Notes under the pieces: model-generated
The model's database searches: none
Told to the model about the DNA's origin: nothing
Seen by the model: the letters and a program-made list of their open reading frames with translations, nothing else
Translations under genes and position numbers: made by a program
Part shown: piece after piece, positions 12,232 through 55,906 of the stretch
Layout of the letters: each line of letters opens with the position of its first letter
Position numbering within the stretch: the first letter of the stretch is position 1
DNA from: Nemertoderma westbladi
Lineage: Eukaryota; Animalia; Xenacoelomorpha
Reading direction: 5' to 3'
Length of the DNA: 64,000 nt
Assembly (NCBI GenBank): GCA_032718475.1
Contig: JAUCBJ010000373.1
Location: forward strand, 23,460-87,459

Positions 12232-12252
12232 TCTATATATATAAATATCATG

Positions 12253-12283
<31 letters not shown>

Positions 12284-16481: not shown

Positions 16482-16502
16482 TCTATATATATAAATATCA
16501 TG

Positions 16503-16542
<40 letters not shown>

Positions 16543-18282
16543 CAAGCTATACGTTTCTACACACAAGCACCAATCTGAGCTCGCGATACATCGAACGAAA
16601 GCTCTCGTCACGAGCACGTGCACTGTCGCTATCTCGAGTCTTATTTTATACGTTTGTTTGCGTGAATGCAGATTTCGTGAATTTGGTACCGGTAGCGCGG
16701 TAAGCCTAGCAGTTCATTCTGTCACTCTACATGTTGGGTCCGACTATTATGCTACTTTTTGATACCAGACATAATCTGTTCTAAATGATACTTTGCAGAT
16801 CTGTTCCCGACCATAGACTGTGTGTTTGGGAGGACACTGATCAATCTGCAGTTCTCCAGTCTGCCGCTAGGGGGCGAAATATCCGAAACTGAAAACATCT
16901 CCCATTTCGTTATTATTAAAGCCTTTTAGCTGATACATGGCAGAGGTCTTCTACACCATAGGCTTTGTGTTTGGGGAGGATGCTGACCAATCTGCAATTC
17001 CCCAGTCTGCCGCTAGGGGGAGAAATATCTGAAAGTGAAAACCTTATCCCATTTCTTTGTTTATAATGCTTTTTTGCTGATACTTGGCAGAGGTCTACTA
17101 CACCATACAGCGTGTTTGGGGAGGAGCTAATCAGTCTGCATTTCTCCAGTCTACCGCTAGGGGGCCAAATGTCTGAAAGTGAATTTCGTTATTAATAATG
17201 CTTTTAGGCTGACACTTGGCAGATGTGTATTACACCATATGGTGTGTGTCTGTGGAGGACGCCCAACTATCTGCAGTTCTCCATTCGGCCGCTAGGGGGC
17301 GAAATATCTGAAAGTGAAAACCTTATCCCATTTCGTTGTTTATAATACTTATAGGCTGATACTTGGCAGAGGTCTACTACGCCATAGGCTGCGTGTTTGT
17401 GGAGAACTCTGACCAAGCTGCAATTCCTCTGTCTGCCACTAGGGGGCGCAATGTCTGAAAGTGAAAACCTTCACCCATTTCGTTATTAATAATGCTTTTA
17501 TGCTGATACTTTGCAGAGGTCTTCTACACCATAGACTGTGTTTTTGTGGAGAACTCTGACCAATCTGCAATTCCTAAGTCTGCCGCTAGAGGGTGAAATG
17601 TCTGAAATGAAAACCTTCTCCCATTTCGTTGTTTCTAATGCTTGTTTTTTATACTTGGGAAAGGTATACTACACCATAGGCTGTGTGTTTGGGGCGGATG
17701 CTAACCAGTCTGCAGTTCTCCAGTATACTGCTAGAGGGTGCGAAATGTCTGAAAAGTGAAAATATTCTCACATTTATTTATTAAAAACGCATTTAGGCTG
17801 ATACTTGGCAGAGGTCTACTGTACTACATCATTGGCTGCGTCTTTGGGAAGGACGTTGACCAGTCTGCAGTTCTCAAGTCCGCCACTAGGGGACGAATTA
17901 TCTGAAAGTTAAATCCTTCTCCCATTTAAATGCTTTAGAGTTGATTCTTGGCAGCGATCTATAATTACTGTACAGTACCTACTAAATTTACGAGGATGAT
18001 AACCTGCAGTTCTACAATTTAACCTTTTTCCATATTTTTACTATTTTGTAATCCTTTGGAAATGATACTTGGTAGGCATTTACTACAGTATATACAACAA
18101 GCCTTATGTTGTACATAGTAGTTTGTAGTAAAATAGCTTCAGTAATTTTGTTTGAGAGAACACTCAATCATGTGACGTTTTGTTAAGTTAAGTTAATTAA
18201 TTAATTACAGAATTAATGTTTGGAATGGTGAATAGGCTTGTGAACTAGAAAGCCGTGGCCCGAAGGGCCACTGGCTTTCTAG
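16482..18282 (+). mobile_element. Non-autonomous Helitron, type B copy 2
   Basis: Colinear with 12232-14426. It ends hairpin-CTAG|T, completing an A|T insertion site for the whole array. Confidence 0.9.
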
Positions 18283-19006: not shown

Positions 19007-22000
19007 TATAGAACAATGGCTCCACCCCACCTGGTCTACTTATAGAACAATGGCTCTAATGCACCCCACCTGGTCTACTTATAGAACAATGGCTCTAATG
19101 CACACCACCTGGTCTACTTATAGAACAATGGCTATAATGCACCCCACCTGGTCTACTTATAGAACAATGGCTCTAATGCGCCCCACCTGGTCTACTTATA
19201 GAACAATGGCTCTAATGCACACCACCTGGTCTACTTATAGAACAATGGCTCTAATGCACCCCACCTGGTCTACTTATAGAACAATGGCTCTAATGCACAC
19301 CACCTGGTCTACTTATAGAACAATGGCTCTAATGCACCCCACCTGGTAAACTTATAGAACAATGGCTCTAATGCACCCCACCTGGTCTACTTATAGAACA
19401 ATGGCTCTAATGCACACCACCTGGTCTACTTATAGAACAATGGCTCTAATGCACCCCACCTGGTAAACTTATAGAACAATGGCTCTAATGCACCCCACCT
19501 GGTCTACTTATAGAACAATGGCTCTAATGCACCCGACCTGGTCTACTTATAGAACAATGGCTCTAATGCACCCCACCTGGTCTACTTATAGAACAATGGC
19601 TCTAATGCACACCACCTGGTTTACTTATAGAACAATGGCTATAATGCACACCACCTGGTCTACTTGTAGAACAATGGCTCTAATGCACACCACCTGGTCT
19701 ACTTATAGAACAATGGATCTAATGCACACCACCTGGTCTACTTATAGAACAATGGCTCTAATGCACCCCACCTGGTCTACTTATAGAACAATGGCTCTAA
19801 TGCACCCCCCTGGTCTACTTATAGAACAATGGCTATAATGCACACCACCTGGTCTACTTATAGAACAATGGCTATAATGCACCCCACCTGGTCTACTTAT
19901 AGAACAATGGCTCTAATGCACACCACCTGGTCTACTTATAGAACAATGGCTCTAATGCACACCACCTGGTCTACTTATAGAACAATGGCTCTAATGTACA
20001 CCACCTGGTCTACTTATAGAACAATGGTTCTAATGCACCCCACCTGGTCTACTTATAGAACAATGGCTCTAATGCACCCGACCTGGTCTACTTATAGAAC
20101 AATGCTAATGCACCCCACCTGGTCTACTTATAGAACAATGGCTCTAATGTACACCACCTGGTCTACTTATAGAACAATGGCTCTAATGCACCCCACCTGG
20201 TCTACTTATGGAACAATGGGTCTAATGCACCCCACCTGGTCTACTTATAGAACAATGGCTCTAATGCACCCCACCTGGTCTACTTATAGAACAATGGCTC
20301 TAATGCACACCACCTGGTCTACTTATAGAACAATGGCTCTAATGCACACCACCTGGTCTACTTGTAGAACAATGGCTCTAATGCACACCACCTGGTCTAC
20401 TTATAGAACAATGGATCTAATGCACACCACCTGGTCTACTTATAGAACAATGGCTCTAATGCACCCGACCTGGTCTACTTATAGAACAATGGCTCTAATG
20501 CACACCACCTGGTCTACTTATAGAACAATGGCTCTAATGCACCCCACCTGGTCTACTTATAGAACAATGGCTCTAATGCACACCACGTCTAATTATAGAA
20601 CAATGGATCTAATGCACACCACCTGGTCTAATTATAGAACAATGGTTCTAATGCACCCCACCTGGTCTACTTATAGAACAATGGCTCTAATGCACACCAC
20701 CTGGTCTACTTATAGAACAATGGCTCTAATGCACCCCACCTGGTCTACTTATAGAACAATGGCTCTAATGCACACCACCTGGTCTACTTATAGAACAATG
20801 GCTCTAATGCACACCACGTCTAATTATAGAACAATGGCTCTAATGCACCCCACCTGGTCTACTTATAGAACAATGGCTCTAATGCACACCACCTGGTCTA
20901 CTTATAGAACAATGGCTCTAATGCACACCACCTGGTCTACTTATAGAACAATGGCTCTAATGCACACCACCTGGTCTACTTGTAGAACAATGGCTCTAAT
21001 GCACACCACCTGGTCTACTTATAGAACAATGGCTATAATGCACCCCACCTGGTCTACTTATAGAACAATGGCTCTAATGCACACCACCTGGTCTACTTAT
21101 ATAACAATGGCTCTAATGCACACCACCTGGTCTACTTATAGAACAATGGCTCTAATGCACACCACCTGGTCTACTTGTAGAACAATGGCTCTAATGCACA
21201 CCACCTGGTCTACTTATAGAACAATGGATCTAATGCACCCCACCTGGTCTACTTATAGAACAATGGCTCTAATGCACACCACGTCTAATTATAGAACAAT
21301 GGATCTAATGCACACCACCTGGTCTACTTATATAACAATGGCTCTAATGCACACCACCTGGTCTACTTATAGAACAATGGCTCTAATGCACACCACCTGG
21401 TCTACTTGTAGAACAATGGCTCTAATGCACACCACCTGGTCTACTTATAGAACAATGGATCTAATGCACCCCACCTGGTCTACTTATAGAACAATGGCTC
21501 TAATGCACACCACGTCTAATTATAGAACAATGGATCTAATGCACACCACCTGGTCTAATTATAGAACAATGGCTCTAATGCACACCACCTGGTCTACTTA
21601 TAGAACAATGGCTCTAATGCACCCCACCTGGTCTACTTATAGAACAATGGCTATAATGCACCCCACCTGGTCTACTTATAGAACAATGGTTCTAATGCAC
21701 CCCACCTGGTCTACTTATAGAACAATGGCTCTAATGCACACCACCTGGTCTACTCATAGAACAATGGCTCTAATGTACACCACCTGGTCTACTCATAGAA
21801 CAATGGCTCTAAGGCACCCCACCTGGTCTACTTATAGAACAATGGCTCTAATGCACACCACCTGGTCTACTTATAGAACAATGGCTCTAATGCACCCCAC
21901 CTGGTCTACTTATAGAACAATGGCTCTAATGCACCCGACCTGGTCTACTTATAGAACAATGGCTCTAATGCACCCCACCTGGTCTACTCATAGAACAATG

Positions 22001-25000
22001 GCTCTAATGCACACCACCTGGTCTACTTATATAACAATGGCTCTAATGCACCCCACCTAGTCTACTTATAGAACAATGGCTCTAATGCACACCACCTGGT
22101 CTACTTATATAACAATGGCTCTAATGCACCCCACCTAGTCTACTTATAGAACAATGGCTCTAATGCACACCACCTGGTCTACTCATAGAACAATGTCTCT
22201 AATGCACCCCACCTGGTCTACTTATAGAACAATGGCTCTAATGCACCCCACCTGGTCTACTCATAGAACAATGGCTCTAATGCACCCCACCTGGTCTACT
22301 TATAGAACAATGGCTCTAATGCACACCACCTGGTCTACTTATAGAACAATGGCTCTAATGCACACCACCTGGTCTACTTATAGAACAATGGCTCTAATGC
22401 ACCCCACCTGGTCTACTTATAGAACAATGGCTATAATGCACCCCACCTGGTCTACTTATAGAACAATGGCTCTAATGCACACCACCTGGTCTACTTATAG
22501 AACAATGGCTCTAATGCACACCACCTGGTCTACTTATAGAACAATGTCTCTAATGCACCCCACCTGGTCTACTTATAGAACAATGGCTCTAATGCACACC
22601 ACCTGGTCTACTTATAGAACAATGGCTCTAATGCACCCCACCTGGTCTACTTATAGAACAATGGCTCTAATGCACACCACCTGGTCTACTTATAGAACAA
22701 TGTCTCTAATGCACCCCACCTGGTCTACTTATAGAACAATGGCTCTAATGCACCCCACCTGGTCTACTTATAGAACAATGGCTCTAATGCACCCCACCTG
22801 GTCTACTCATAGAACAATGTCTCTAATGCACCCCACCTGGTCTACTTATAGAACAATGTCTCTAATGCACCCCACCTGGTCTACTTATATAACAATGGCT
22901 CTAATGCACCCCACCTAGTCTACTTATAGAACAATGGCTCTAATGCACACCACCTGGTCTACTTATAGAACAATGGCTCTAATGCACCCCACCTAGTCTA
23001 CTTATAGAACAATGGCTCTAATGCACACCACCTGGTCTACTTATAGAACAATGGCTCTAATGCACCCCACCTGGTCTACTTATAGAACAATGGCTCTAAT
23101 GCACACCACCTGGTCTACTTATAGAACAATGGCTCTAATGCACACCACCTGGTCTACTTATAGAACAATGGCTCTAATGCACCCCACCTGGTCTACTTAT
23201 AGAACAATGGCTCTAATGCACCCCACCTGGTCTACTTATAGAACAATGACTCTAATGCACCCCACCTGGTCTACTTATAGAACAATGACTCTAATGCACC
23301 CCACCTGGTCTACTTATAGAACAATGGCTCTAATGTACACCACCTGGTCTACTTATAGAACAATGGCTCTAATGCACACCACCTGGTCTACTTATAGAAC
23401 AATGGCTCTAATGCACCCCACCTGGTCTACTTATAGAACAATGTCTCTAATGCACACCACCTGGTCTACTTATAGAACAATGGCTCTAATGTACACCACC
23501 TGGTCTACTTATAGAACAATGGCTCTAATGCACACCACCTGGTCTACTCATAGAACAATGGCTCTAATGCACCCGACCTGGTCTACTTATAGAACAATGG
23601 CTCTAATGCACACCACCTGGTCTACTTATAGAACAATGGCTCTAATGTACACCACCTGGTCTACTTATAGAACAATGGCTCTAATGCACACCACCTGGTC
23701 TACTTATAGAACAATGGCTCTAATGCACACCACCTGGTCTACTTATAGAACAATGGCTCTAATGCACCCCACCTGGTCTACTCATAGAACAATGGCTCTA
23801 ATGCACCCCACCCGGTCTACTTATAGAACAATGGCTCTAATGCGCCCCACCTGGTCTACTTATAGAACAATGGCTCTAATGCACACCACCTGGTCTACTT
23901 ATAGAACAATGGGTCTAATGCACCCCACCTGGTCTACTTATAGAACAATGGCTCTAATGCACACCACCTGGTCTACTTATAGAACAATGGCTCTAATGTA
24001 CACCACCTGGTCTACTTATAGAACAATGGCTCTAATGCACACCACCTGGTCTACTTATAGAACAATGGCTCTAATGCACACCACCTGGTCTACTTATAGA
24101 ACAATGGCTCTAATGTACCCCACCTGGTCTACTTATAGAACAATGGCTCTAATGCACACCACCTGGTCTACTTATAGAACAATGGCTCTAATGCACACCA
24201 CCTGGTCTACTTATAGAACAATGGCTCTAATGTACACCACCTGGTCTACTTATAGAACAATGGCTCTAATGCACACCACCTGGTCTACTCATAGAACAAT
24301 GGCTCTAATGCACCCGACCTGGTCTACTTATAGAACAATGGCTCTAATGCACACCACCTGGTCTACTTATAGAACAATGGCTCTAATGTACACCACCTGG
24401 TCTACTTATAGAACAATGGCTCTAATGCACACCACCTGGTCTACTTATAGAACAATGGCTCTAATGCACACCACCTGGTCTACTTATAGAACAATGGCTC
24501 TAATGCACACCACCTGGTCTACTTGTAGAACAATGGCTCTAATGCACCCCACCTGGTCTACTTATAGAACAATGGCTCTAATGCACCCGACCTGGTCTAC
24601 TTATAGAACAATGGCTCTAATGCACACCACCTGGTCTACTTATAGAACAATGGCTCTAATGCACCCCACATGGTCTACTTATAGAACAATGGCTCTAATG
24701 CACCCCACCTGGTCTACTCATAGAACAATGGCTCTAATGCACCCGACCTGGTCTACTTATAGAACAATGGCTCTAATGCACACCACCTGGTCTACTTATA
24801 GAACAATGGCTCTAATGCACACCACCTGGTCTACTTATAGAACAATGACTCTAATGCGCCCCACCTGGTCTACTTATAGAACAATGGCTCTAATGCACCC
24901 CACCTGGTCTACTTATAGAACAATGGCTCTAATGCACACCACCTGGTCTACTTATAGAACAATGGCTCTAATGCACCCCACATGGTCTACTTATAGAACA

Positions 25001-25195
25001 ATGGCTCTAATGCACCCCACCTGGTCTACTCATAGAACAATGGCTCTAATGCACACCACCCGGTCTACTTATCTACTTATAGAACAATGGCTCTAATGCG
25101 CCCCACCTGGTCTACTTATAGAACAATGGCTCTAATGCGCCCCACCTGGTCTACTTATAGAACAATGGCTCTAATGCGCCCCACCTGGTTTACTT
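19007..25195. repeat. 39-bp tandem satellite (ATGGCTCTAATGCACCCCACCTGGTCTACTTATAGAACA), about 160 units
   Basis: Directly visible, with two dominant variants, CACCCCACC and CACACCACC. Confidence 0.98.
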
Positions 25196-25482: not shown

Positions 25483-25921
25483 CACAGTAACACCCCCCCC
25501 CCCATCGGCCCCCAGTAACCGACCCCCTTCCCCCAGTAACCGGCCCCCGACCCCAGTAACCGCCCCCCTTCCCCCAGTATCCGGCCCCCTTCCCCATGTA
25601 ACCGCCCCCCTTCCCCCAGTAACCGGCCCCCTGCCCCCAGTAACCGCCCCCCTTCCCCCAGTAACCGGCCCCCTTCCCCCAGTATCCGCCCCCTTCCCCC
25701 AGTAACTGGCCCCCCTTCCCCATGTAACCGCCCCCTTCCCCCAGTAACCGGCCCCCTGCCCCCAGCAACCGCCCCCCTTCCCCCAGTAACCGGCCCCCTT
25801 CCCCCAGTATCCGCCCCCTTCCCCCAGTAACTGGCCCCCCTTCCCCATGTAACCGCCCCCTTCCCCCAGTAACCGGCCCCCTGCCCCCAGCAACCGCCCC
25901 CCTTCCCCCAGTAACCGGCCC
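25483..25921. repeat. C-rich ~20-22-bp minisatellite (CCCCCAGTAACCGGCCCCCTT), left part
   Basis: Directly visible. It resumes at 27134 after the LINE insertion. Confidence 0.92.
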
Positions 25922-27096
25922 TTAGAAGGATAATTGAAGAATTATCAAAAAAGAAAGACAGGCATCTGGCTGTTATCTTTGTTGACTTCTTCAAGGCCTT
26001 TGATTCTGTCTCTCGCTCACGTATGTTCAGCATACTTTCATTATATGGGATTCCTGATGAAATTATTGCAGCAATCAGATCAGTATACGATGGTTCGACA
26101 ACATTTGTGTCTACTGTTGACGGTGACACAGAACCATTCGAAGTGTTATGGGGCGTCCTCCAAGGAGACACACTTGCACCATTCTTATTCATTATTGTGG
26201 TTGACTATGTTCTACGCATGTCCTTAGATCATCATAATGATGATGGGGTGATGATAACTCCACCTACTGGCTCCAGAAGTCGAGGAAATCCTGCCAAGTA
26301 CCTAACTGATCTAGACTTTGCTGATGACTTAGGAGTACTCTCAGAATCATTAGAGGGAGCCCAACGGCTCCTCAGCTCATTAGAACATGCTGCTTCTAGT
26401 GTTGGTCTTTTTATTAACTCCAGAAAGACCAAAATTCTGACAGTTAACTTTGAAAGTCCTCAGCAAGTCTCTGATCGGATGAGCATAAGCTCAAAGGATG
26501 GTATGCTTGAGCATGTCGACGACTTCTGTTACCTGGGATCATGGATCCGGAAGTCAGGTGAGGACCTTCGAATACGTAAGGGAAAGGCATGGGCAGCCTT
26601 GAATAGGCTTTCCAGGATTTGGAAGTCACCGAGAATTAATCGGAAACTTAAGGTCCGATTATTTAGAGCAGCAGTAGTTCCAGTACTCCTCTACGGGAGT
26701 CCATGCTGGGCTCTTACTGCTGAGGACACCAAATCTCTGGATGGCACATTCACAAGAATGCTACGCCGGGTTCATTGTGTCAAGTACAATGCACACATCT
26801 CCAACCAGACACTATATAACATTGGAGGTGTCTCATTGGTTCCCCCAAGCTTGACACTAGAACAAAATCGCCTCCGCTTTGCAGGACATTGCTTTCGCCG
26901 TGAGGACCAGCCAGTGCATAATCTTGTACTTTGGCAGCCTCATGGAGTGAATAAGCATGGTGGACAGCCCATGACTTTCTTGAGACGCATCTTAAAGGAC
27001 ACTGGTCTTAAATATGCGGATGATCTAGCAAATGTCATGGGTGATAGGGAGTTGTGGCGGTGCAATTTTGTTGACAAGCCGGCACAGCATTCTTAA
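25921..27096 (+). CDS. Reverse transcriptase ORF (C-terminal part) of the RTE-type element, no internal stops
   Basis: LRRIIEE...FVDFFKAFDSV, GVLQGDTLAPFLF, LDFADDL, FCYLGS and LRFAGHCFR are typical RTE-type RT motifs. No endonuclease is present because of the truncation. Confidence 0.9.
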   Translation, partial: LRRIIEELSKKKDRHLAVIFVDFFKAFDSVSRSRMFSILSLYGIPDEIIAAIRSVYDGSTTFVSTVDGDTEPFEVLWGVLQGDTLAPFLFIIVVDYVLRMSLDHHNDDGVMITPPTGSRSRGNPAKYLTDLDFADDLGVLSESLEGAQRLLSSLEHAASSVGLFINSRKTKILTVNFESPQQVSDRMSISSKDGMLEHVDDFCYLGSWIRKSGEDLRIRKGKAWAALNRLSRIWKSPRINRKLKVRLFRAAVVPVLLYGSPCWALTAEDTKSLDGTFTRMLRRVHCVKYNAHISNQTLYNIGGVSLVPPSLTLEQNRLRFAGHCFRREDQPVHNLVLWQPHGVNKHGGQPMTFLRRILKDTGLKYADDLANVMGDRELWRCNFVDKPAQHS

Positions 27097-27346: not shown

Positions 27347-28327
27347 CTACGTCGGGGTGGCTTTCCGTTTCATCCCGCTATGTCTCTGTCTATCTCTTCC
27401 CTTATGGGCCGCCGTTTCATAGGTAGAAACCAGCAGCCCTTCCCCCGCGAGAACTTTAAGTAGCTGCACAATAAATGGCAGGTAGTTGTGTTTCCTACGG
27501 ACAGTCTCTCCCTTGTAACGCCTCCGTTTCTCCTCCTCCTCCCTAACTAACTCTTCCAACTCTCTCTTCCGCACCTCCCCAACGTCTCCCAACAGCTCCT
27601 CGTTGTATTTACTCAACCTATCAGTAACAACAGCGAGCAGATTGAACCTTATCTCGCTACTCGTGTACGACTTCATCCGTGTCTCTATGACCTCCCGCGC
27701 CCGGTCCATCCAACCAGCGTCCCCGTACTCCCCGTGGTCTACCGGGGTCGTCTGCAATCCGTCCAGCTCGTAAACCCGCCCGTCTATAGGAACAAACCCG
27801 ACGAAATGGAAGGAGTCTTCCTCCTCTAATCCTCGCTTATCCTCCAACTCGAACATTGTTTGTCGCGCGAAACTGTTGTGAACGTTTCTCACGCTACTGC
27901 AGTTACTCAATGCGAGACCGCGGGTGACGCAGTCGAAACTGCCGCTGAACTCCTTAAAGTTGCGGAGTTGGTCCCCCAGAAGGACACCCTTGTGGTCCAA
28001 GTTGAGGAGAATGTTTATCATTGCGATGGTCGCGCAAGCATTCGTGATTACTTGCCGCGCGAAGTATATATTACAGTATTTAGCGTCTAAATCCCCAAGT
28101 GCCATCTCTGTTGGTTCAGGCTTGGTCTCCTTCTTACCCTCCGATTTCTCTACTTTAAAGAGGAAGACCAGCCCCAATATGGGGTCTAAGTGTTTAATGG
28201 AAGATTCATCGAGTGTGTAAAGCTCTTCGACTTGAACCCCGACCACTCCGAATCCTGTAATAAGTTCGGTAAACACACCCGGGTCGCTCTCGATTAAACA
28301 CCAATCGCCGGCACTATTAGAGGCCAT
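27347..28327 (-). CDS. UCHL5: Ubiquitin C-terminal hydrolase L5 (UCH37), single exon, 326 aa
   Basis: WCLIESDPGVFTELI, catalytic Cys in QVITNACAT, His in FHFVGF, Asp in YELDGL, and the C-terminal ULD motif RRKHNYLPFIVQLLK. It lacks the long BAP1 insertion. Confidence 0.93.
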   Translation of the reverse strand: MASNSAGDWCLIESDPGVFTELITGFGVVGVQVEELYTLDESSIKHLDPILGLVFLFKVEKSEGKKETKPEPTEMALGDLDAKYCNIYFARQVITNACATIAMINILLNLDHKGVLLGDQLRNFKEFSGSFDCVTRGLALSNCSSVRNVHNSFARQTMFELEDKRGLEEEDSFHFVGFVPIDGRVYELDGLQTTPVDHGEYGDAGWMDRAREVIETRMKSYTSSEIRFNLLAVVTDRLSKYNEELLGDVGEVRKRELEELVREEEEKRRRYKGETVRRKHNYLPFIVQLLKVLAGEGLLVSTYETAAHKGRDRQRHSGMKRKATPT

Positions 28328-29744
28328 CGTCTAGCACTTAACTGTGTTGTACCGGTAGTTTAAATTCTTTACCTCAGAGAATAAGTCCAGCATTAATGAA
28401 AGGAAGGGACAAAATAAATTACAAACTTACCTACTGTTGGAAGTGCCTACCGTTGGAATTGGAATTATTTATTTGACAAACTAAGTAATATATACAAACA
28501 TATATAGATATATCGTCCCTTTCATTTTGAAATCACCTACCGGTACGCCAAATGTGGCATTTTCCACAAAACAACATTATTCATTTTAATTTCGTTTTGG
28601 AGTAAAATTAAATGGGTTTTGACATACCGGTATTGTTACTGTATTGGTATTGGCTGATTGGTTTGGTACCGGTATTGGTAATCTTACTTGTTATGAAATA
28701 AAAAAAAAAGACATTGTGTTTGAAAATATTCGAATCATGTCACATAGGCCTATTACGTAGGAAACTATGTTAGTACAGTAGTAGGTAAATTGCGGACCAG
28801 CAAGAAGTGCACTGCACACATGCAGTCAGGTAGGCCTACTTAAAGCTAAGTTAGCTGCCGCTAACTTTTGTCAAAGGCAGTGATTTTTTATGTCCTTTTA
28901 TTTGACTTTTTTGTCCTCCTTTTTTTACGAATTGTGCATAATGACTTTTGTTGTCCCTTTAATGACTTTTGTTGTCCTTTTAATGACTTTTTATGTATGT
29001 ATTTCTTCAAACTGTCAGACTGCTGATTTCTGGACTGTCAGACAGTTGATTTCAACATGCCTATGCCAAAACATTCAAAATTTGTTGATTTCGGGTCTGT
29101 CGGACAGTTGGTTTCACTATGCCTGTGCCAAAACATTCAAAATTCCATGATTTATCGACTATGGCAGGGTATAACTTTTCGCCGAATCCGTATCCGTATG
29201 CATTCGTCGTATTCGTATGCACATACGCGTATGCACATACGCGTATGCACATACGCGTATGCACATACGCGTATGTAATGGATTCCTGTGGAGAATAATC
29301 CGTATGTGATTTTATGTAAAGATTAGGCATTGCGGACCAGTAAGAAGTGCACAGCACACATGCTGACTGAAGACAGGTAATATAGGAAATATAGGTTTTC
29401 TTTTTGGAGTTATTACAGCCCTGGTGACTAACTGCGAAAACAAAACAGATGAATGCCCTAAAATCGGCTTGCCGCGGACTGAATGTTTTGAAGACAGGTA
29501 GGCCTACTTAAAAGCGATATGATTTAAAGAGTGCGGCTGCCGCTACCTAATGGAAAATAAACATCATAGGTCCAGGATGAGTGACATATGATGTCCTTAA
29601 TTAACCCCGGGATGCGCCACAGCCATAGTGCTTGTTTTATTGTACTAACTGACACCTGACCGCCCGGTTGGACTTAGATTAATTACTGGCACCCGGTTGG
29701 ACTCGCTGACACGTGGTTTGACTAACTGGCACTAGGTTGGACTT

Positions 29745-30317
29745 TGTAAGCGGATTCAATTCCGCCTCATGACCCTCATAAAATGGGATAGTGGCATTTT
29801 CAGCAATATGTTGGAGATACGAGATTAGCAATAAATAATCTCGTATCACAACCAACATCGGGGGACAGTACAAACCCCGAAGCCACACACAAAGGGAGGT
29901 TAGAGGTCAAACCACCTCGGAAGGGGACACAGCTAGCAGGGGCTAGCCACAGGGGGGAAACACTCCCAGAGAGTGCAAAGGCATGAAGTAGGTTATTAGC
30001 CAATAGGGGCGAAGGAGAGCATCCACTAGGTAGCAGGCCAAGGTACTGTAGGAGTGAAGTAATCATATATTATCTCCTACATACCGGTTTACCATTCAGT
30101 TACCAATTGTCAGTTTCAGTGCAGACCGGCATTATTGTATTACCATCATCACAGTGCTGTCATATGCTGTTATTCAGATTACTATTACCGGTTTATCATT
30201 CATACTGTGCTATCATTACGTATTATTATATATCAGAATGAAGGAACATCAAACTCAAACGTTTTCTCCACACTGCGTACAAACATAACCCAGTCGGGGT
30301 CCCTTGATCCCGTCACA
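29745..30317 (+). repeat. 5' LTR of BEL element 1
   Basis: TGTAAGCGG...CCCGTCACA, a direct repeat of 55259-55842 with a few percent substitutions and an 11-bp indel. Confidence 0.95.
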
Positions 30318-30689
30318 GTAAGACAATAGACCAACTGCCATCAAACTGTGACTGCAGAGACAGAGAAAGTAGAGAATAAAGATGAGTGATAGAGAGCCCC
30401 GAGATCCAGAGGGAGAGAGGACGCCGCCGCGGACCCCGGACGACAGCAACCAAACGATCCGTGAGGTCGCGACGAGACGGTATCGACCTGCGACACCGGA
30501 TTCGCCGACGAGGGACGATCCGGTACCCCAAGCGGAGGGCGGCCGTCAACCACGAGAGAGGTACGAGTCGACACACGACGGCGGTCGGAGTAGCGAAGTC
30601 GCCGGCCAGCCACAGGCCGAGGGCGACGGACGGCCCACCGGAACGGCGACAGTGGGGCCGCCGGTACAACGCCGAACGAGGAGAGGAGG

Positions 30690-31855
30690 TGTTCGCGCTT
30701 TCAGACCTTTAGCAGTTTAACGTGCCAAATTTGGATGTCTTCTAGATTGTAAATCGACTTTAGCCTATGACGAGTATTTGATACACTACATTAGCCGAAG
30801 CCAGTCTATGCGCGACCATTCACCCGCTGGATATACCCGGGAGACTGGATTCGGAAGCCTAACCTTATTGCGGTGTAGGCCTACTGTATTATTCGACTGA
30901 TCGTAATATATAATCTCTGACAAATATTATTCACTTTCGGGAAATATTAACAGTTCCTTTAGGACGTGGCGCTCTAAATATGTAAACAGAGTTATGACTT
31001 ACACTAGACACAACGGGATGGCTATGGATTCACGTATATAGCGCATTCTTTAGGAGATGCTTTGTTATCAGTCACAATCATGTACACTACCGCACAATGC
31101 TGCACACCGATCTGCCGACCTTCACTAATTTTAGTCACATATAAAGAGAACAACAACCAACTCATGTAGTGCCTATGAAATAGCATTAGATTCACTCCAA
31201 AACCACTTTAATTTAAGTCGCAATTGTTATATGTAACCGGTCTCTCTAACCTTCAGTATATCAAGAAGATTGGGGTTTCTGATTATTGATCAATATTATC
31301 CAAATATAATAATATTCCATCAACCGATATAATTAATGACCGACAGTAAATAGCAGTAAAAATGCGGTGTTTGTAGTTGACAATATGATTAGGTGAGTAG
31401 ATAACAGATATACGTTTCTATGATTAAGCCTACTAATGTTGGGCTAAAGCCTGAAACCACAGAGATTCCAAAGCCGGTCTTCTGGGCTCAGGAAAAAATG
31501 TAAACATTGACCCATAATGCATTGCGCGATTTCCCGGAGGTTTCTGTACAAAAAGCAGGAGAATCGCTCTGATTGGTTGACTGAACAAAGAAACAACAGA
31601 GAACAAGGAAAAAGCTACACGTGTACAGATCAGCTGTTAGCTGTCGTCATAGTAACTACACTTTATCAAGAGGATTTAGCGTATTGCGACATAGAATTGC
31701 TAGTTATGTCCGCTAAAGTACACATACAGAAGAAATGGCTTTTTATGTCCACTAAAACACCAGTACAGTAAGGAAACGGCTTTTGATGTCCGTTAAACCA
31801 ACTACAGAGTACTTTGCGGGGAAAATAACCAGCTAATTCCACAAAAGCTTTTACA
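30690..31855 (-). repeat. 3' LTR of BEL element 2
   Basis: Direct repeat of 46580-47745 (offset 15890), with about a dozen substitutions by eye. Confidence 0.95.
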
Positions 31856-34840
31856 CCGCTCCCAGAAAATGGGATTTAATTCTATAAAATATAAAAATCA
31901 CAGTTTCTAAAATATAAAAATACTCTAAACAGTTAGTCTTTCTTACGCGGACGGCGATTACGCAGTTTTTTGAGGCTAGCAAGAGTCCTTTTCTCTTTGG
32001 GGCGAGCCACTTTACTAGGAGGGCTATAACTCCTGGGTAAAGGGTGCAATACAATTGCATCGGAAGGTTTAGGGTTACGGTCGATGTCTCGTCCATTTCG
32101 ATATGCTTCTCCTCGAGCTGATTTTCCTCCGCTTATCGTTGGATGCGTTCGTCCAAAACTCTTGCAGAGAATAGGGTCGTCCAAGTTCGATATCTTCTTA
32201 GAGATTCTGAATTTCCTGATCGAACTGAGATAAAGTTAATTCGTTTACCGCTTGGACTTGCTGCTGCAATTTACGTTTCTCTAAACAATTGTAGGTTCAT
32301 TTTCCGATCTTTTGACGAATAGTGTCCAACGCGTTTCGTACAACTCTCTCCTCCGCCTCGGTGACAGGTTATATCGGGTTAAACAGGGACGATGATACGG
32401 TTGAATGGCGATATTAGATGTCCGCGTCCCAATCCGACTAGGTAAGATGGGCGAATATTTAGTGAGCCCACAACCGGAGTGCCACCGACTAACTGTTCGG
32501 GTAACACTAAATCTTTGAACAGTGAGTACAGTTCGGGAGGATCCGTGATACTATTAGGATCAAGAGTCTGAGGTCTAACTAGGGAATAAGGAGGTCTGAC
32601 CGAGTATCACGGAACTCTGATCATAGGTTTATTTAAGGATCGTTTGAGTCGAGCGAGCATAGGTTATACATCGAACAAGTTTCGCTCGAAACTCCCGTAA
32701 ATATAGCGAGTAAAACTGTATTTAAAGCAACGTCTCCGCGGATGTTTATGTCTTTCCGTTTGTTGGTTGGGTCTTGGGCATTCATCGCAATAATACCAAA
32801 GACGCACGTCTTGTAGGGGAAACGCGGGTGATATTTATTCGGTTTTACAACGTTTCTCTCAAGAATTCCAAATATACGTTGGAGTTACTGCGTTTATCCG
32901 GTTCTTTAACGTCTTCTCTTTCGAGTCGATTTCGAATAGAATTTTGCATTCGATTTTCAGTTTATCGTTCCGACTCCGCTGGGTAGGATATTTAAATAGT
33001 ACCATTTCCCTTTCGGTGTCGACATCGTCCGTATCGTGTAAATCGATAGGATGACCAGTAGTTAAGAAGTCCATATACGTACCATTACGATGCGTATAGT
33101 GAGCGGTGAATTTTCTATAGTCCAATTCACGCGTAAGTTGCTCTTGGGACATTAGCGGTTCGATATAACGACCATCGTCCTCCGTAGTAGTTGGACCAGC
33201 GTCGCCGCGTATCAAGCTATCAACAAACGCTTGTAAAGGTAGAGTATATCGCTCCCTGATACCAAGATCATCTTCTATCAACTCAGTCATATCTGCTATA
33301 TGAGTTTATCAATATTATAATGAGTTTATATTTAGGCTAGCGGGCGTCGCTGCCTACCCCTCTCGGCCCCCGGACAGCACAAGATCCTCAGCGCTGGTGT
33401 ACTTTCGCCAATGTGCCTATCGCCAACGTCGTAGCTGCACAACGACCACAACAACCAGCGCGAGTCACTCCACCGTCCGTCCCAAAGGCTTAGATTTACT
33501 TCAGGTTCTTACTGGAGAGTTAGGGCTACTTTCACAATTGCGACTCGCTACTGTAAACACACTTTAGTAGTAACATTCACCTATAAACGCACAAATTCCA
33601 CACAACTGTCACAAATCGCACACATTCGGGCCATTTGTCCGTTAGTCAGTGCCTTCCAGAATGCCACGTTATTATTGGGTATCCTGGGATACTAGCAGTG
33701 TGCTATTTATTCCCTATGCTATTCAATGGGGCAAGCCTTTATTGTTCTTTTAACTCACTTCTAATTCTAGCGTGGTTGTTGCCATGGTGCCATTATGGAA
33801 AGCTAGCAGTAGAATTAGAGTAATTCTCATGCATACAGATCTGGGATGCTATTTAATAGTAATTCTTTAATTGTCAATATTTCTCTTTATACATGATTTT
33901 ATGAATTTTATCGGCTATTGACTATATATTGGAGATTCTCGCATACTAATATACTTAATAGGGTGAATCTCCGCTCCCATGATCTACTAATTTATGGAAT
34001 TTTGGGAATGTTATAAATTGTATAAAAATGACAATTTATCAAATTTATTAAAAGATGAATTTAAATTTATTCCCGTAAATTTTATTATTTAATATTAAAT
34101 AGACACAATTTTATTCCAGAACATGTCTGGGGACTGGGATCCTTGATTCTAGGAAATTGATCTTTTTAAGAATATCGGTAAGTGTTACGATATCTTAATA
34201 GACTAGAATTTTAAAGGATCTAAAATTTGACAGATTTTGTAAATATTAATAATTAATATTTAGGATGGGCACCAGTTTATTCCAGAACTTGTCTGGGGAC
34301 GTTAACCACTGATTCTAGAATTTTGTCTTTCAAGTATATCGGTGGGTGCTGCGATATCTTAATCGACTAGAATTGCAGATGGTCAAAGGGTTTTACAGAT
34401 TTATTTTGCGTTATACGCTACTGTTAAAGGGACATCACGCTACTATATGTATTATTTAATATACGGTATGAGAGCAATATCGCACGAAGCAATGTCAGTG
34501 AGAAGAGGCAAGTCATTTCCAAGGTCTACCCAGAGCTTGGTTTAGCCAAGACACGAGGATCTGAATTTTACATTCCTAATACTCTACTTTACCAATAATA
34601 CTTGAATATAGTAGGAGCTTTATTGTACTTTAATAAGTACGGATATTTCATCTTACTGTAGTTACGTATTTGTAATGTAATACGGACAGTAAGGAAAGAG
34701 AAAAAGAATTATTTCTCGCCATTGCACTAAATATATAATATATAAGTAATTAAGTAATAAACGCGAATATATATTGCACTAATCTACTAAATAATCGCTA
34801 AAATAACATTCTACTAAATAAAATTAAAGAAAACGATTAT

Positions 34841-35100
34841 TGTGACGGGATCCAAGAAGGATCCCGGTTTATCCGGTTTGTCAATTCACGCGTCCCCGCC
34901 GTGTGTGGAAGATAAAAGAGTTTACGTTGTTCGTTGTATATAATGTTCGGGATATGTATAGTATAGATATAGATAATGGATAAGATAAATATTGTTGTAC
35001 GCGGAAGGCGGGAAACGGTAATTGAAATCCCGGTACTTCCCTAGCTAAACTACTGCTACTGTAACACCAATAACACTGAGATAACTGAATGAGATAACTG
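34841..35100 (-). mobile_element. Partial LTR (R-U5-like) of a third element related to element 1, fused to the integrase of element 2
   Basis: The minus strand ends ...GACGCGT...CGGGATCCTTCTTGGATCCCGTCACA, similar to the element 1 LTR end ...GACGCGT...CGGGGTCCCTTGATCCCGTCACA. No TSD. Confidence 0.65.
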
Positions 35101-38100
35101 ACGTTTTCTTGCTGCGCAAACCACTTCGTTCGAAGTTGTAGCGTGGGCAGATAATGTTTTTCGAAATGGTCAGCGAAACGACGGGATAACAACTGCATAA
35201 GTTGCCAAGTTTGCCGGCAGTATTCGTCTCCGTCTGTGATTTCCGATTGTGGGAGCATGGCTACAGGTTTCTTCAGTAGGAAGTGCGCGGGTGTTAGCGC
35301 TTCTAGGGAATCGGGACTCGATGAGACTGGCATAAGCGGTCTCTCGTTGAGATAGGCAGCTATTTCCTCCATTAACGTCCGCAAAAGTTCGTCGGTGAGA
35401 TACGCGCGGCATGGCAACAGGAAATACTTATCGGAATCCTCATAACATTGTAGGAGTCTCAGCATCTGTTTGTTGGTTTCCTCATGCTCCTGGTAACTGA
35501 TCTTCTCCTTTAGAAACCTGTCGGATATCTTGTATTGGGGAAGGTCTTTAACAACATGGACTCGTGCAGATGTTGATGGAGCATCATCACTATTGGTCTT
35601 TGTCCCGGAGTAATGATGATGAAAACATCGTTTTAAATAGGTGACGGCTTTACAGAGCCGATTCCAGGAACTGTAGTGACGTATCGCTCTCTGCAAGAGA
35701 GGTGAGAGTCCTTGCGCGATATCTGGTATTCCAGATTTCCAATCCTTGTCACGGATTTCCAAGACTTCTTTAGTCGTGGCGGTGGGTTTCTGATCCAAAG
35801 CATCCTCTCCGGAAGTAAATAATACAGATAGATCAACTGCAGGTTTAAACAACTTCGATTTACTCGCTCGAGTTTTGGGTTTAACTTTCTCCGCTCCCTT
35901 GGCCTGTCTGATCTCTGCTGTTGTGAGATGGGGAGGCCATTCTTCTTCTTCTCTGTAGAGAAAGTCGGGTCCTCCTAACCATTCGGGAGTATTTACCAAT
36001 TCCTTTGGAGTCGCTCCTCGGGACGCGATGTCTGCTGGATTAATCATTCCGGGGCAATGTCTCCATTGGTCCATCTTCGTGCGACTAAGTATGATGGCTA
36101 CCCTGTTGGTAACGAAGACGCTGAACTGACAGACTTCATTGGTTATATACTCTAACACGAGTAAAGCGTCGGTCCAATAGACAGTTTTCTCTAATGGATA
36201 GTCAATCTGTTCGGTTACATTCCGGCCGATGGCTGTAGCGTATAGAGCCGCTTTTAACGCTTTAACGCTTTTAGCCGCTTAAGCTGCTTTCGAGGAACTT
36301 TCAACTTGTTGTTGATTAATGCCTTAGAAGTAACCAGGGCGACTTTGATTCCATCCGGAGTTTCCACCCTTAGATAGGCTACTATACCTATTCCCATATC
36401 GCTGGCGTCTCCAAACACATGGAGTTGATAGGAATACGTAGGGAGAACATGACCAAAATATGAACGGGAAATTATAAAATCCTCGATAGCTGGCAGAGAA
36501 TCTTCCCATTTCATCCACTTCTTCAATAATTCTCCCTTAAGTGGATCGTCCCATGAGTGGTTTTCAAGCCACATTTGTTGTACCAAACTACGAGCAATCA
36601 ATATAACTGGGCTAATAAATCCCAATGGATCGAAATAAGTGCTCAGTATACTTAAGCAAATCCGTTTGGTTCGAACTGGATTATCTCGCTGTTTTAGCTG
36701 GAAAAACAGGATATCTCGCTCTGTGTCCCATTTCAAACCGAGTGTCTTGGTTTCTGGAAGATCATCTTTGATTAGGTCTAGGTCTTTTGCTCCTCGATCT
36801 TCTACCGGGATCGATTCCAGAAACTCACGGGAGTTGCTGGTGAATTTAGTTAATCGAAATCCACCTCTTTTTAAGCACTCTACTGTTCCTTTGGCGACAT
36901 CAATGGCTTCTTCGACTGATGGAAGGGACTTTAAATTGTCGTCCATGTATATATCCCGTTTGATGTTGTCGATCACCTCTTCAGAGAAGGCGTCCCGGTT
37001 GTCATCAGCAGTGGTACGCACCACTGAGCAGGCGTTTGAAGGGCTTGAGATTATCCCAAAAGCCTGGATGGTCATCCAATACTCCACCGGTTTCTGGTTG
37101 AGGTCTCCTTCAGGCCACCACAGAAATCGTAGGCTATCTCGATCCCTATCCAGCGCCTTGACTTGTAAGAACATGCCTTCTATATCGGAGGCGAAAGCGA
37201 TTGAATATTGTCGTAATCTTAAGAGTATTCCCAACAAGGATTGGAGTAAGTTGGGTCCTGGTAACAACTCGGAATTAAGGGATTGGCCCATGTAGAGGGC
37301 GGAGCCGTCAAATACTACTCGTACCTCATGAGGTTTACCGGGTTTGGGAACGTAATGATGTGTTAAATAATACGTTCTCTCAGTTATAGGTGTTTCTTCC
37401 GGTACTCGCTCACCCTTTGTTAATAAATTTCTTCAACTGCGTCTGATACATTTCTTTAGCTGAAGAGTTTGCCGTAAGGCGTCGATGTAGTTGAGCAATT
37501 CTTTTCTCCGCCAAGGGTCTGTTGTATATGAACTTTGGTTCTCGCTTTCGGAAAGGTAGACCGATTTCATATCTACCTTGATCTTTAAGAAAACGTGTAG
37601 TTGTCTCTTGGATCTGCTTGGCTCTTTCTTCTTCTACCGATAGGGCCTTATCGTAGGAATTGGGCTCTACAGCCTCTTGAGTAAAGAATCGTACGGCGTG
37701 TTCATCCCGAGTTTTGGCATTATAACGTTCAATGACGTCATTCAGTTCGTCGTTATAGTCGACTCGTTCTGATGGACGAATGAGCTGACATAGGTTCACT
37801 TGGTTTTGCCAAGTCTCGTTTTCCGTAAGGAGATCAATGGTATTCTCCTCGTCGAAGAGTTGGTGGATATCGTCGTTATCTGAGGAGTATGGTGTTCCCT
37901 CAGTTGGATCGTCTAACTCACTGCTCTCCACTTCCCATTCTCTTACTTGATATACCTGATCTTTTGGTAATCTTTCCATGAGAGTTCTACGGGAAGGGCC
38001 AGTAAAGTACCAACCCACTCTAGTTCTTCCCGCATAGGCTTGTAGTGGTTGCAGTTGAGCAGGCCGTTTCTCCAATGTCTCGAGCGCCTCATGCGCATTT

Positions 38101-39058
38101 TGACCGATGAGTATTTGCACTCCAGGGTAATCGGTATTGAATCTAGGTATATCAAGCTGCTGGTTGAAATCGTCCTCATCCCAGTTATAAGGTTCCACTT
38201 GGCTGGTAGCGAAGTTCTTTATCGCTACCATTTTTACTGACCTTATGCTGTGTTCTCCTAGTTCATCCTGGGGGGTGGACAACGCACCTACATAATAATC
38301 CGCTATTACTGTAGATTTCCAAACCTGCTTAATTCCTGACATGTTTAACTTAGTTCGGAACTTGGGTTGTCCAGCAAAGATGTCTTCGGCTAGTTCTTTG
38401 TCGATGAATGTTCCTGTGCTACCGGAGTCAAGGAGGGCGTTCACTATATAACTCCTTTCAGGTCCGTGGACCCTTAACTGTACTACAGGAAATTCTCGGA
38501 TTCCTACATTGGAAGTTGGTGCTTTCCAAGATGGTTGTCGATCAGAAGTAGTTAGGGTGAGCTCGCTGTCGGTGTCCTTTTCATACGTAAGTGCTCGATA
38601 TACTGCGGTATTTATCATGTAACAGGATTCGTCTTCGTCGGAGAATTCGTCCGTATAGAATCCTTCCATCTCAGAACTTTGGTCAGTGTCGTTCACATCA
38701 CTGAATTGGACATGTAGTTCGGAATCACTTACCTGACTCGGGCTGTTTCGCTCGAATTCAATGTGCAACAAGATATGATGTTTCGCACCGCACTTTGTAC
38801 ACCTTGCGTCGGAGTAACAGGTTCGCCGTTGGTGTCCTTGTCTGAGGCAATTATAACACAACAGCTTATCCCACATGACTTCCCGTCTATCCTTTAATGA
38901 TTTCTTTAGGAATTCATCACACATATTCAAACGGTGGGGCCTGTCACACAGCGCACATTTTGGTTTGATGTTACTTACCTTATTTTGAGTAACGTTGTGC
39001 ACACTCGTTCTTTCTTCGGGCTTTCTTACCTGAATTCTCTTAGGAGAAGTAGGAGGGG
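35101..39058 (-). pseudogene. Element 2 pol: zinc knuckles, protease, RT, RNase H and internally deleted integrase; frameshifted
   Basis: ALLDSGS (protease), SLNSELLPGPNL, FASDIEGMF, YMDD (RT), LHVFGDAS (RNase H), WRHCPGMINPADIASRG, LNERPL and LTPAHFL (integrase tail). The integrase HHCC and D-D core are absent. Confidence 0.92.
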
Positions 39059-39869
39059 TCTTATAGACCTACGGTGTTGGACTAGCCTAGGGTCTGATAC
39101 TACTACTGGAGGGATGATCTTTCTTACAGTAGGAGGTGAGTTGAACTTCGGTCTCACACGTTCCATACTCCTGTCTGGGTCACAGATGGTCGTATCTAGG
39201 AGACTGTCTGACAGGTTTTGCTTTGTGTCAGACATGTTTGTTTGTACAGTTGAATGCCTACTGCTATATTACAGTTAAAGCAAGTCTAGTAATTCAGTAT
39301 CAACTGTTAGCCTAGTAATTAATTACCGATACTGCTACTCAGTATAGCGTGATATATATATATATAATATATTAGAATACCGGTATGCTTATAGTATATA
39401 TATAAGTATTATTACAGACTAGATTTGTCACAGAATACCGGTATGTAATTTCAGCACAAATATATATAAATATATAATAGGCCTATCGTGAATACCGGTA
39501 TACAGCTTACACTTATAGTATATATAAGTATAATTATGGACTAGAATTAATTACAGAATACCGGTATAATTTCGGCCTAAATTTTATGGAAATAAATATA
39601 ATAAGCCTATTGTAAATACCGGTATGTCAATTATTTTAGAATAATTGAATTTCTGAATTTTAGGGGTTACTTGGTTACTTTACTTTACTTGATTACCGTT
39701 ATTTAAGCAGTAGTCCAACTGACATTAAGACCTAATTGATGTAAGACAGGCCTACTATTTATAAATCGTTTGAGTTGATTTATAATATATATATACCCGT
39801 ATAATGGGTTTTGTCAATATTTGAAATAAATGTTATTATTTCTAGGAAGGAGTCACTGCACAGAAGCTG

Positions 39870-42800
39870 TTGGTTTTGCCAAGTCTCGTTTTCCGTAAGG
39901 AGATCAATGGTATTCTCCTCATCGAAGAGTTGGTTGATATCGTCGTTATCTGAGGAGTATGGTGTTCCCTCAGTTGGATCGTCTAACTCACTGCTCTCCA
40001 CTTCCCATTCTCTTACTTGATATACCTGATCTTTTGGTAATCTTTCCATGAGAGTTCTACAGGAAGGGCCAGTAAAGTACCAACCCACTCTAGTTCTTCC
40101 CGCATAGGCTTGTAGTGGTTGCGGTTGAGCAGGCTGTTTCTCCAATGTCTCGTGCGCCTCATGCGCATTTTGACCGATGAGTATTTGCACTCCAGGGTAA
40201 TCGGTATTGAATCTAGGTATATCAAGCTGCTGGGTGAAATCGTCCTCATCCCAGTTATAAGGTTCCACTTGGCTGGTAGCGAAGTTCTTTATCGCTACCA
40301 TTTTTACTGACCTTATGCTGTGTTCTCCTAGTTCATCCTGGGGGGTGGACAACGCACCTACATAATAATCCGCTATTACTGTAGATTTCCAAACCTGCAT
40401 AATTCCTGACATGTTTAACTTAGTTCGGAACTTGGGTTGTCCAGCAAAGATGTCTTCGGCTAGTTCTTTGTCAATGAATGTTCCTGTGCTACCGGAGTCA
40501 AGGAGGGCGTTCACTATATAACTCCTTTCAGGTCCGTGGACCCTTAACTGTACTACAGGAAATTCTCGGATTCCTACATTGGAAGTTGGTGCTTTCCAAG
40601 ATGGTTGTCGATCAGAAGTAGTTAGGGTGAGCTCGCTGTCGGTGTCCTTTTCATACGTAAGTGCTCGATACACTGCGGTATTTATCATGTAACAGGATTC
40701 GTCTTCGTCGGAGAATTCGTCCGTATAGAATCCTTCCATCTCAGAACTTTGGTCAGTGTCGTTCACATCACTGAATTGGACATGTAGTTCGGAATCACTT
40801 ACCTGACTCGGGCTGTTTCGCTCGAATTCAATGTGCAACAAGATATGATGTTTTGCACCGCACTTTGCACACCTTGCGTCGGAGTAACAGGTTCGCCGTT
40901 GGTGTCCTTGTCTGAGGCAATTATAACACAACCGCTTATCCCACATGACTTCCCGTCTATCCTTTAATGATTTCTTTAGGAATTCATCACACATATTCAA
41001 ACGGTGGGGCCCGTCACACAGCGCACATTTTGGTTTGATGTTACTTACCTTATTTTGAGTAACGTTGTGCACACTTGTTCTTTCTTCGGGCTTTCTTACC
41101 TGAATTCTCTTTGGAGACGTAGGAGGGGTTTTTCTTACCTGTTCTCTCCTGTCATTGGTTCGAGACTTGAATTTACTTACGTCTTTAGGCGTTTTATTGA
41201 CATAATAAGATCTTTCAGTGTCTTTCCCGCTGTCCTCTCCTTGAGAAGCCTGGCTTTCGCCGTCGTCGGTATAACACACTGGTGTTACCTTTCTCCTAGA
41301 AACGGGTTTCTCACTTACCTTGTTTTCCGGTGTCTTTTCTCTGGACTGCTTTAGAAGCTGTAATTTCACTTCTCCATCTAAGAATGATGACATGAAATCA
41401 GCCATGGTAGGGTCTCGTCGTTGTTGTTCCATCATATATAACACTTTCTTATCCCAGCGTGTACCTACTCCACCCTTCGGTAAAGTAGAGGCACGGCTCC
41501 AATAACCATAGAACTCTGATATTCATGAGACTTACCTAGCCAATCTAATTGTCTACAGATCTCCTGAATTTCATCGGAAAACTCTATAATCCCGCTGCTA
41601 ATGAATTTTCGGGGCGCTACCAATTTTGCATACAAATACCTAGCTATGTTATTCCTATTACCATACCTGATGTTTAGGGTATCCCAAACTTGTCTTAATC
41701 CATCTGGATGTCCAATAAACTTTAACGCCATTAACTTGGGAGATCCTTCCAAGCACTCGATGAGGAATCTAAGTTTCTCTCCATTAGATAGCACAGAGTT
41801 CTGTATGTTATCTTTGTAATATTCATTAAAAGGTAACCATTTCATCTCATCTCCATTGAACTTGACGATCTCTCCCACCTTTACCGCTTGACGGGCTTCG
41901 GTTCTAGCCATTTGATGCGTAAAACTTTCTTGGGCCATCGTGTTATTTAATATCGAGTTATCGGTATATAAATTTCTTGGATTATTATCAAGTCTATATG
42001 GAATATCATTGTCAACAGGTTTATAATTACCCTTAATAGGGTTTACTATTGGAGTTTCCACTTCGCTAGCAGTATAGATGTGTGTAGGCTCCACACCTTG
42101 CGCATGAAATACTTCAGACCTAACAGGTTGACACATTGTTACAGGGGGTGGTGGTATACCCTTTTGTGTATTTACTAATTTATCGCGTTCTAACGCGATA
42201 CTTTGCTGCACTTCTTGCAACTCTAACCTACTTTCCCTTACTGTGCCCTTGAACTGCTTAACAGTCTCCTGCATCTGCCCGAGCAGGAGATCCATCCCCC
42301 GCCGTCTCTCATCCACCCACTCGACTGCCGAAGCGGGAGCCACCAACGTAGTAGCGGGTGGACGGGGGACAACGGGCGACAAATCATTGATATTTCGCTC
42401 GGAGTCCAGAACAGGAACTGTCTCATGGGCTGTTCTGCTGGGCACAGGTAGTTTAGTGCTATGCAAAGGGAATTTAGAGGTAGGTTCTGGGAGTACAGGT
42501 GTCTCTATCACCGAAGGGGTGGCTTCGAGAACAGGCCTAATTATTTCAGGCTCATCTACTATAGTAGGGAGTCTTTCTATTTTAATTATTTGGTCTGTGG
42601 GTTCTGTACTACCTAAGTCTGTGCTAGCTAGTTGCCTTCTAACAGCTGGGGGCAAATCAGGCAATTTCTGACGGTGGGACATTCTTCTACGTCTGCTTAG
42701 ACGAGATCTATTTCCTCCGCCTTCAGGATCGGTGGTATCGCCTTCCTCAGATGATGTGTATCCCTGTCTCTTGGGAGTAGATCGCCTCATCATCTGCATT

Positions 42801-45664: not shown

Positions 45665-46237
45665 AAATATTACGCTACGCGTACAGACTACTCAAATAAA
45701 ATACAGACCAAACGCTGACAGACTACTATCAAGCCTAAACAAACTACAGTATATGCAGACTCCGAAATGGTTAGTTAGTATGCGTTCTAACCGAGTAGTA
45801 CGACTTATTCTTTCGAGGGGATTTACCTCACAGCACTGGAAGCCCCTACGTTCCTAACTAGTAATTTATCGGACATACACTCTACACACACCGCAATCTC
45901 TTCAAACTTAACAACAGCCAGACAACAATCCAGCCTACAAATTATCTAAATAAGAAATATTACGCTACCCGTACAGACTACACATACAAAATACAGACCA
46001 AACGCTGGCGGACTACTATCAAGCCTAAACAAACTACAGTATATGCAGACTCCGAAATGGTTAGTTAGTATGCGTTCTAACCGAGTAGTACGACTTATTC
46101 TTTCGAGGGGGTTTACCTCACAGCACTGGAAGCCCCTACTTTCCTAACTAGTACTTTATCGGACATACACTCTACACACACCGCAATCTCTTCAGACTTA
46201 ACAACAGTCAGACAACAGTCCAGCCTACAAATTATCT
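45665..46237. repeat. 290-bp tandem duplication in the leader of element 2
   Basis: 45665-45947 is repeated at 45955-46237. Confidence 0.9.
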
Positions 46238-55842: not shown

Positions 55843-55906
55843 GACTTGTTGGCACTTGGCTGCATATGGTTAACTAAATACTGGTCCCGAAACAGCGAAA
55901 GTAAAG

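Follow-up and report, generated by a model that had tools for sequence, protein, structure and literature searches.

How does a BEL/Pao retrotransposon start reverse transcription when the position of its tRNA primer site holds other letters? The ICTV description of the Belpaoviridae gives the family an 18-nt primer site for tRNA-Arg or tRNA-Gly (PMC8742986). An earlier note on a 64,000-nt stretch of Nemertoderma westbladi DNA (hereafter the window, meaning the whole stretch analysed) had proposed that one BEL/Pao element in it pairs at this position with its own LTR instead.

That element, element 1, spans 29745-55842 on the forward strand between two copies of a 5-bp target-site duplication, GACTT (29740-29744 and 55843-55847). 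Its LTRs (5', 29745-30317, 573 nt; 3', 55259-55842, 584 nt) are 96% identical and have TG...CA ends, and a polypurine tract lies at 55250-55258. On the same strand are a gag piece with DUF1759 (50573-51310, E 3.7e-11) and a piece with an aspartic protease (E 6.5e-6) and only the start of a reverse transcriptase (RT; 51753-52961). Downstream of this RT start, RNase H and integrase are absent, and an extra open reading frame (ORF) behind pol (53640-54509) has a weak zinc knuckle (E 0.046) and no Pfam family. The LTRs, the short duplication and the gag, protease and RT homology are those of BEL/Pao, and element 1 shares with the Belpaoviridae its LTRs, DUF1759 gag, protease, BEL-type RT start and polypurine tract; it has no Ty3/gypsy-type pol of the kind found in Tf1/sushi elements, its domains being BEL/Pao. 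Identity to other BEL loci is 23-31% among the 50 best rows (best E 6e-43), and no protein matched the protease-RT piece at E 1e-25 or better. A complete protease-RT-RNase H-integrase pol is lacking, as the coding region stops past the RT start. Element 1 is a non-autonomous BEL/Pao derivative, not an intact member, a point that the earlier note did not stress.

Own-LTR pairing at the primer-site position of element 1

The primer-binding-site position (30317-30329, forward strand) consists of the final LTR base plus GTAAGACAATAG, which directly follows the 5' LTR. As the earlier note had read, TGG is absent, and element 1 is in this unlike the Belpaoviridae with their 18-nt tRNA-Arg or tRNA-Gly site. 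Within this position AGTAAGACAATA (30317-30328) is the exact reverse complement of TATTGTCTTACT in the 3' LTR (55647-55658), pairing at 12 of 12 bases, and one G:U pair extends the match to 13; the candidate primer segment of the 3' LTR is then 55646-55658 on the forward strand. Its 5' LTR counterpart (30133-30144, same strand) pairs at 10 of 12, with mismatches at 30139 and 30144.

Chance estimates for the 12-nt match range from 2e-4 to 8e-4. None of 2000 dinucleotide-shuffled versions of the 3' LTR attains that length, and 7 of 8,940 20-mers sampled from the window do; base composition predicts 2e-4 12-nt matches over the seven permitted start offsets, and 21 foreign LTRs match the element 1 site over 9 nt at best. 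The 5' LTR segment by itself stands at chance level, its perfect run of 6 nt being equalled in 1397 of 2000 shuffles. The earlier note had the pairing right, without stressing that the perfect copy is in the 3' LTR, whereas the 5' LTR copy is the one that would prime.

Promoter-like motifs occupy 30000-30101 on the forward strand, again as the note had said: CCAAT at 30000, a TATA-like run at 30066, and TCAGTT at 30096, the predicted start. The TATA-like run stands 67 nt before the candidate primer segment, and the motifs put the predicted start ~35 nt upstream of it. Neither AATAAA nor ATTAAA follows the segment, and element 1 has no own-LTR match of at least 10 nt across a GT-AG splice, so its presumed place in R depends on the promoter motifs.

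Folding predictions divide along the same line as the two LTR copies. The site forms a predicted duplex of -17.4 kcal/mol with the 3' LTR segment and of -9.6 kcal/mol with the 5' LTR segment and its two mismatches. Five folds were computed for the natural 5' leader, with its mismatched segment; all give site and segment a pairing probability of 0.0, and in one of them a local helix (30312-30319 with 30345-30352) masks the beginning of the site; the Tf1-type leader fold that pairs primer and site does not appear. A 7-bp hairpin is predicted at the U5 end (30295-30312, forward strand), preceding the site as the U5-end stem-loop does in Tf1-type elements, and a version of it with 8 bp and other letters occurs in a related LTR remnant whose end is at 34841. 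Lin and Levin are said to have described the Tf1 U5-end stem-loop in 1998.

Of the 11 substitutions between the two LTRs, 7 fall in 30065-30169, and 6 crowd into a 59-nt stretch that surrounds the segment (P 0.013). The 5' copy may therefore be a product of conversion or of a different template; for the cluster in 30065-30169, possible origins are gene conversion and a second-strand transfer that drew on another copy.

Contigs assembled from host DNA reads (three or four runs from two studies, which may carry the same insertion and so do not count as independent copies) reveal a large and varied element 1 family with many LTR ends in the genome. One contig spans 30242-30345 with zero differences; the primer site is therefore not an assembly error. 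Another, by the number and places of its differences, seems to carry R as it stands in the 3' LTR. At 30139 the pairing letter of that form accounts, in three runs, for less than 5% of the summed contig depth. Sister copies diverge from the reference after 30319, 30321 or 30329 and thus have other primer sites. The contigs do not join a sister segment and a sister site on a single molecule, and their change tables leave out differences close to contig ends, where a missing compensating change is therefore no evidence.

Own-LTR matches and predicted splice junctions in relatives

Relatives were fetched by alignment led by the RT-RNase H region of element 2, a second BEL/Pao element in the window, and comprise 80 metagenome and 35 genome loci. 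A flanking repeat is present in 42 of the 115 and absent from 73. The 42 comprise 19 with a definable LTR end, 8 with an LTR start only, which were scanned blind, and 15 set aside because they are assembly overlaps or repeats other than LTRs (L021, L050, L059, L062, L067, L069, L074, L087, L089, L102, L105, L110, L111, L112 and L120). The 19 ends were taken from both LTR copies; three end in ATA, and one was set by eye. The score was the longest match between post-LTR letters and the LTR, starting no more than 5 nt from the LTR end and running either contiguously or across a GT-AG junction. Thirty-five BEL/Pao loci (L089-L123) lie within prokaryotic genome assemblies, likely as host DNA contamination.

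Own-LTR matches of 10–15 nt occur in 12 of the 13 relatives without TGG, 8 of them across a GT-AG junction only and 4 contiguously, against 0 of the 6 tRNA-type relatives, whose longest matches are 3–6 nt. Five loci (L054, L063, L100, L107, L113) carry a TGGTCC..CGAGCCGGAT site, which we take to be of tRNA-Arg type. When sites and LTRs are swapped between loci, 5 of 488 pairs reach 10 nt and 2 of 488 reach 12; among 22 foreign LTRs, 1 matches as well as L047's own and 2 as well as L066's own, and L090 has 8 nt followed by a mismatch in both LTRs. Counted by family, 9 of 10 against 0 of 6 self-match (Fisher p 9e-4, with kin not independent). Matched changes on both sides of the pairing, read by eye, occur at two places between L092 and L093, at one between L061 and L066 and at one between L010 and L090. 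Plus-strand synthesis in LTR elements copies the primer back into the site, so segment and site would change together, as these relatives do. The own-LTR matches and the matched changes lend strong comparative support to the self-priming reading of the earlier note.

The same comparison weighs on the idea that a host tRNA fragment, or some other small RNA, primes element 1 and that its own match is a local accident, for example of gene conversion. Half-tRNA primers are known in copia elements, according to the accessible text of PMC6317226; the 6 of 11 substitutions near the segment imply that recombination acted there, and the tRNA-type loci L054 and L063 are among the near relatives of element 1. 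Against it stand the low chance estimates for the match and ten relative families that match their own LTRs with different letters, which a few host RNAs would not do. The complement of the site is also unlike a tRNA 3' end and, by the usual anticodon-loop rules, presumably does not suit the end of a half-tRNA; Rfam gives no match in 29700-30720. We consider a host-derived primer very unlikely.

The primer-side 3' end of every hit points at the LTR end, 0–4 nt away (within 5 nt by design), and the paired stretch occupies exactly the position of the tRNA site in the six tRNA-type relatives, with TGG gone. Both features argue against a pairing that is real but structural, in which the 3' R segment would join the RNA ends for strand transfer or packaging while another primer starts synthesis. 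End-to-end RNA pairing is known in Ty1, and only the 3' LTR segment is perfect in element 1, as a structural role would have it; we nevertheless judge such a role unlikely.

A match that exists only after splicing would act in RNA and within the transcribed part of the LTR, which for the relatives answers the objection that the segment might lie in untranscribed U3. The junction pairing in relatives is therefore likely to be RNA-level and located in R. The earlier note missed that in most relatives the primer would be built by splicing. Junction matches and their family-specific recurrence are observed; the splicing itself we infer. In L068 the 5' copy is of intron type and the 3' copy intron-less, which places both forms in one family, or possibly reflects an assembly chimera. 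Most relatives seem built to join their primer by splicing, and of this design element 1 would be an intron-less version.

AATAAA or ATTAAA occurs 0–87 nt past the primer in 11 of 13 relatives, so the primer precedes the poly(A) site there, and a TATA-like run lies 122–220 nt ahead of the primer in 5 of 13. The long 5' arm that this spacing and the 67 nt of element 1 entail would be explained if the primer were element-derived but acted in trans, as a short LTR transcript, or were the trimmed 3' R end of genomic RNA. A primer of this origin would also account for the perfect 3' copy, and the genome holds many family LTR ends. However, the relatives' poly(A) signals lie downstream of the primer, and a trimming step would still be required, which leaves this account quite unlikely.

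The blind scan of the 8 loci with an LTR start only gave junction matches of 10–11 nt in 6 and a contiguous match of 14 nt in L084, with no own-LTR match in L046; it is weak by itself, since foreign LTRs reach 10–12 nt. In L084 (278-620) the 14-nt match sits just past a TATA-like run and ahead of an apparent LTR intron.

Trees were built from 59 and 35 rows drawn from the 115 loci, all unnamed, plus the window pieces. The 13 rows without TGG form one side of a branch with SH-aLRT support of 95, and of 97 in the second tree (10 rows). In both trees long branches lead to elements 1 and 2, which stand outside this self-pairing clade. With the protease included, they fall in a 24-row group (support 97) with L084 and the tRNA-type L054, and element 1 once stands weakly beside three tRNA-type rows (support 30). 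Constraining element 1 to join the self-pairing rows is not rejected (AU p 0.52); constraining element 2 and L084 to join them as well gives AU p 0.12. The trees suggest that priming changed between tRNA and self on more than one occasion. The L084 branch adjoins the tRNA-type L054 and L063, which likewise suggests that primer type switched repeatedly.

A candidate priming mechanism and known self-priming systems

Taking these observations together, we think it probable that the element 1 lineage primes reverse transcription in the manner of Tf1, with an internal segment of its own RNA as primer. For element 1 the pairing and its position against the LTR end are observed, and the start site, folding, cleavage and priming are proposed. 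In this scheme the R segment, at a predicted ~35 nt from the transcript start, would anneal to the primer site by folding back. Cleavage at the 3' side of the segment, for which the element's RNase H is the likely enzyme as in Tf1, would then leave an end for RT to extend into U5. Such a primer would bear a longer 5' arm than that of Tf1. With RNase H and the greater part of RT missing, element 1 would have used the enzymes of an autonomous partner.

The relatives permit a broader proposal, whose chances we put about evenly: a widespread aquatic lineage of BEL/Pao dispenses with tRNA priming, the host spliceosome builds its primer, and families that have lost the intron, element 1 among them, carry the primer ready-made. 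Excision of the LTR intron would bring together the bases complementary to the primer site and so couple replication to splicing. The suggestion in the earlier note of a tRNA-independent BEL lineage has gained strong comparative support from the relatives, but within element 1 the imperfect 5' LTR, the 0.0 pairing in folds and the position outside the self-pairing clade count against it, and several relatives illustrate it better than this copy does.

Self-priming has been reported for Tf1/sushi elements, as the earlier note stated, and for Tcn1 and Tj1 (accessible portions of PMC6317226, PMC4600332, PMC7175516, PMC6934838 and PMC3601003). In the part of PMC7175516 that is available, the Tf1 transcript's opening 11 bases anneal to the site, and the RNase H cut falls between bases 11 and 12. 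Tf1 and Tf2 of Schizosaccharomyces pombe, Tj1, Tf1/sushi and Tcn1 resemble element 1, so far as those sources extend, in having no tRNA site and, per PMC7175516 and PMC4600332, in a site beside the 5' LTR with complementarity to ~11 nt of the element's own LTR (in element 1, to the 3' LTR fully and to the 5' LTR in part). These groups belong to the Ty3/gypsy superfamily, whereas element 1 is BEL/Pao, and cleavage and priming have been demonstrated for Tf1, whereas element 1 is known from sequence alone. The TAR lineage of plant Ty1/copia elements (Houba, Osr-1) offers a predicted case of self-priming outside gypsy, as element 1 does; unlike the BEL/Pao relatives, these are copia elements of plants, and no splice-built primer is described for them in the accessible text (PMC6317226).

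Our literature search found no paper in which BEL/Pao elements prime themselves or build a primer by splicing; supplements, subscription journals or Repbase reports may hold one. The accessible parts of three BEL/Pao surveys (PMC3118150, PMC554778, PMC6238403) mention neither primer-binding sites nor tRNA, the corresponding text of PMC8220671 mentions such sites only in general, and that of PMC13524379 has no self-priming term. If the proposal holds, BEL/Pao would be the third LTR superfamily with self-priming, contrary to the ICTV description, and reverse transcription would have a new mode of initiation, from an internal primer put together by splicing. Silencing by tRNA fragments that target the primer site might also fail to act on such an element. 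Self-priming would further explain why annotation based on tRNAs misses a primer site in elements of this kind, and the predicted LTR junctions are specific and can be checked in RNA data. The Cer7 element of C. elegans, for its part, is said to encode its own tRNA-like primer.

Element 2 and other features of the window

Element 2 is a 17-kb BEL/Pao element on the reverse strand (30690-47745), nested in the leader of element 1 and flanked by a CCTCC duplication. Its LTRs are 1166 nt long and 99% identical. The primer-site position has no TGG and shows a 9-nt match to its own LTR, equalled by 1 of 22 foreign LTRs, which as a case of self-pairing is suggestive only. Its RT-RNase H region is at most 47% identical to mollusc, echinoderm, cnidarian, hemichordate, fish and other aquatic-animal proteins. 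The gag-pol region carries an internal duplication (37800-44954) in which 37800-39062 repeats 39870-41132 at 98.6% identity and 39063-39870 repeats 44148-44954 at 99%. An extra ORF behind pol (32865-33305, reverse strand) belongs to no Pfam family.

Inside element 2, a third LTR remnant on the reverse strand (34841-35110), kin to the R-U5 of element 1, stands in place of the integrase end and begins near TCAGTT motifs. At its junction, 9 nt are complementary to letters 5 nt beyond the remnant end. We rejected a third primer/site pair here, as no primer site in the window holds the complement of the remnant segment that is homologous to the primer.

We also discarded viral-contig relatives sought by DNA pattern, whose 8 matches had at most 17 nt in common with the LTR and were taken as chance; two protein scans of viral contigs found no relative of the element. 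No tRNA gene lies in the 64-kb window. Tandem arrays fill 19023-25195, 2188-4205, 10822-17927 and 57074-57722, with units of 39, 20, ~146 and 68 nt, and a LINE-type RT piece lies at 25915-27096. Two uninterrupted ORFs on the reverse strand encode a ubiquitin C-terminal hydrolase (27347-28330; Peptidase_C12 plus UCH_C) and a RING protein (4481-5788); both sit amid repeats and are possibly retrocopies or captured genes.
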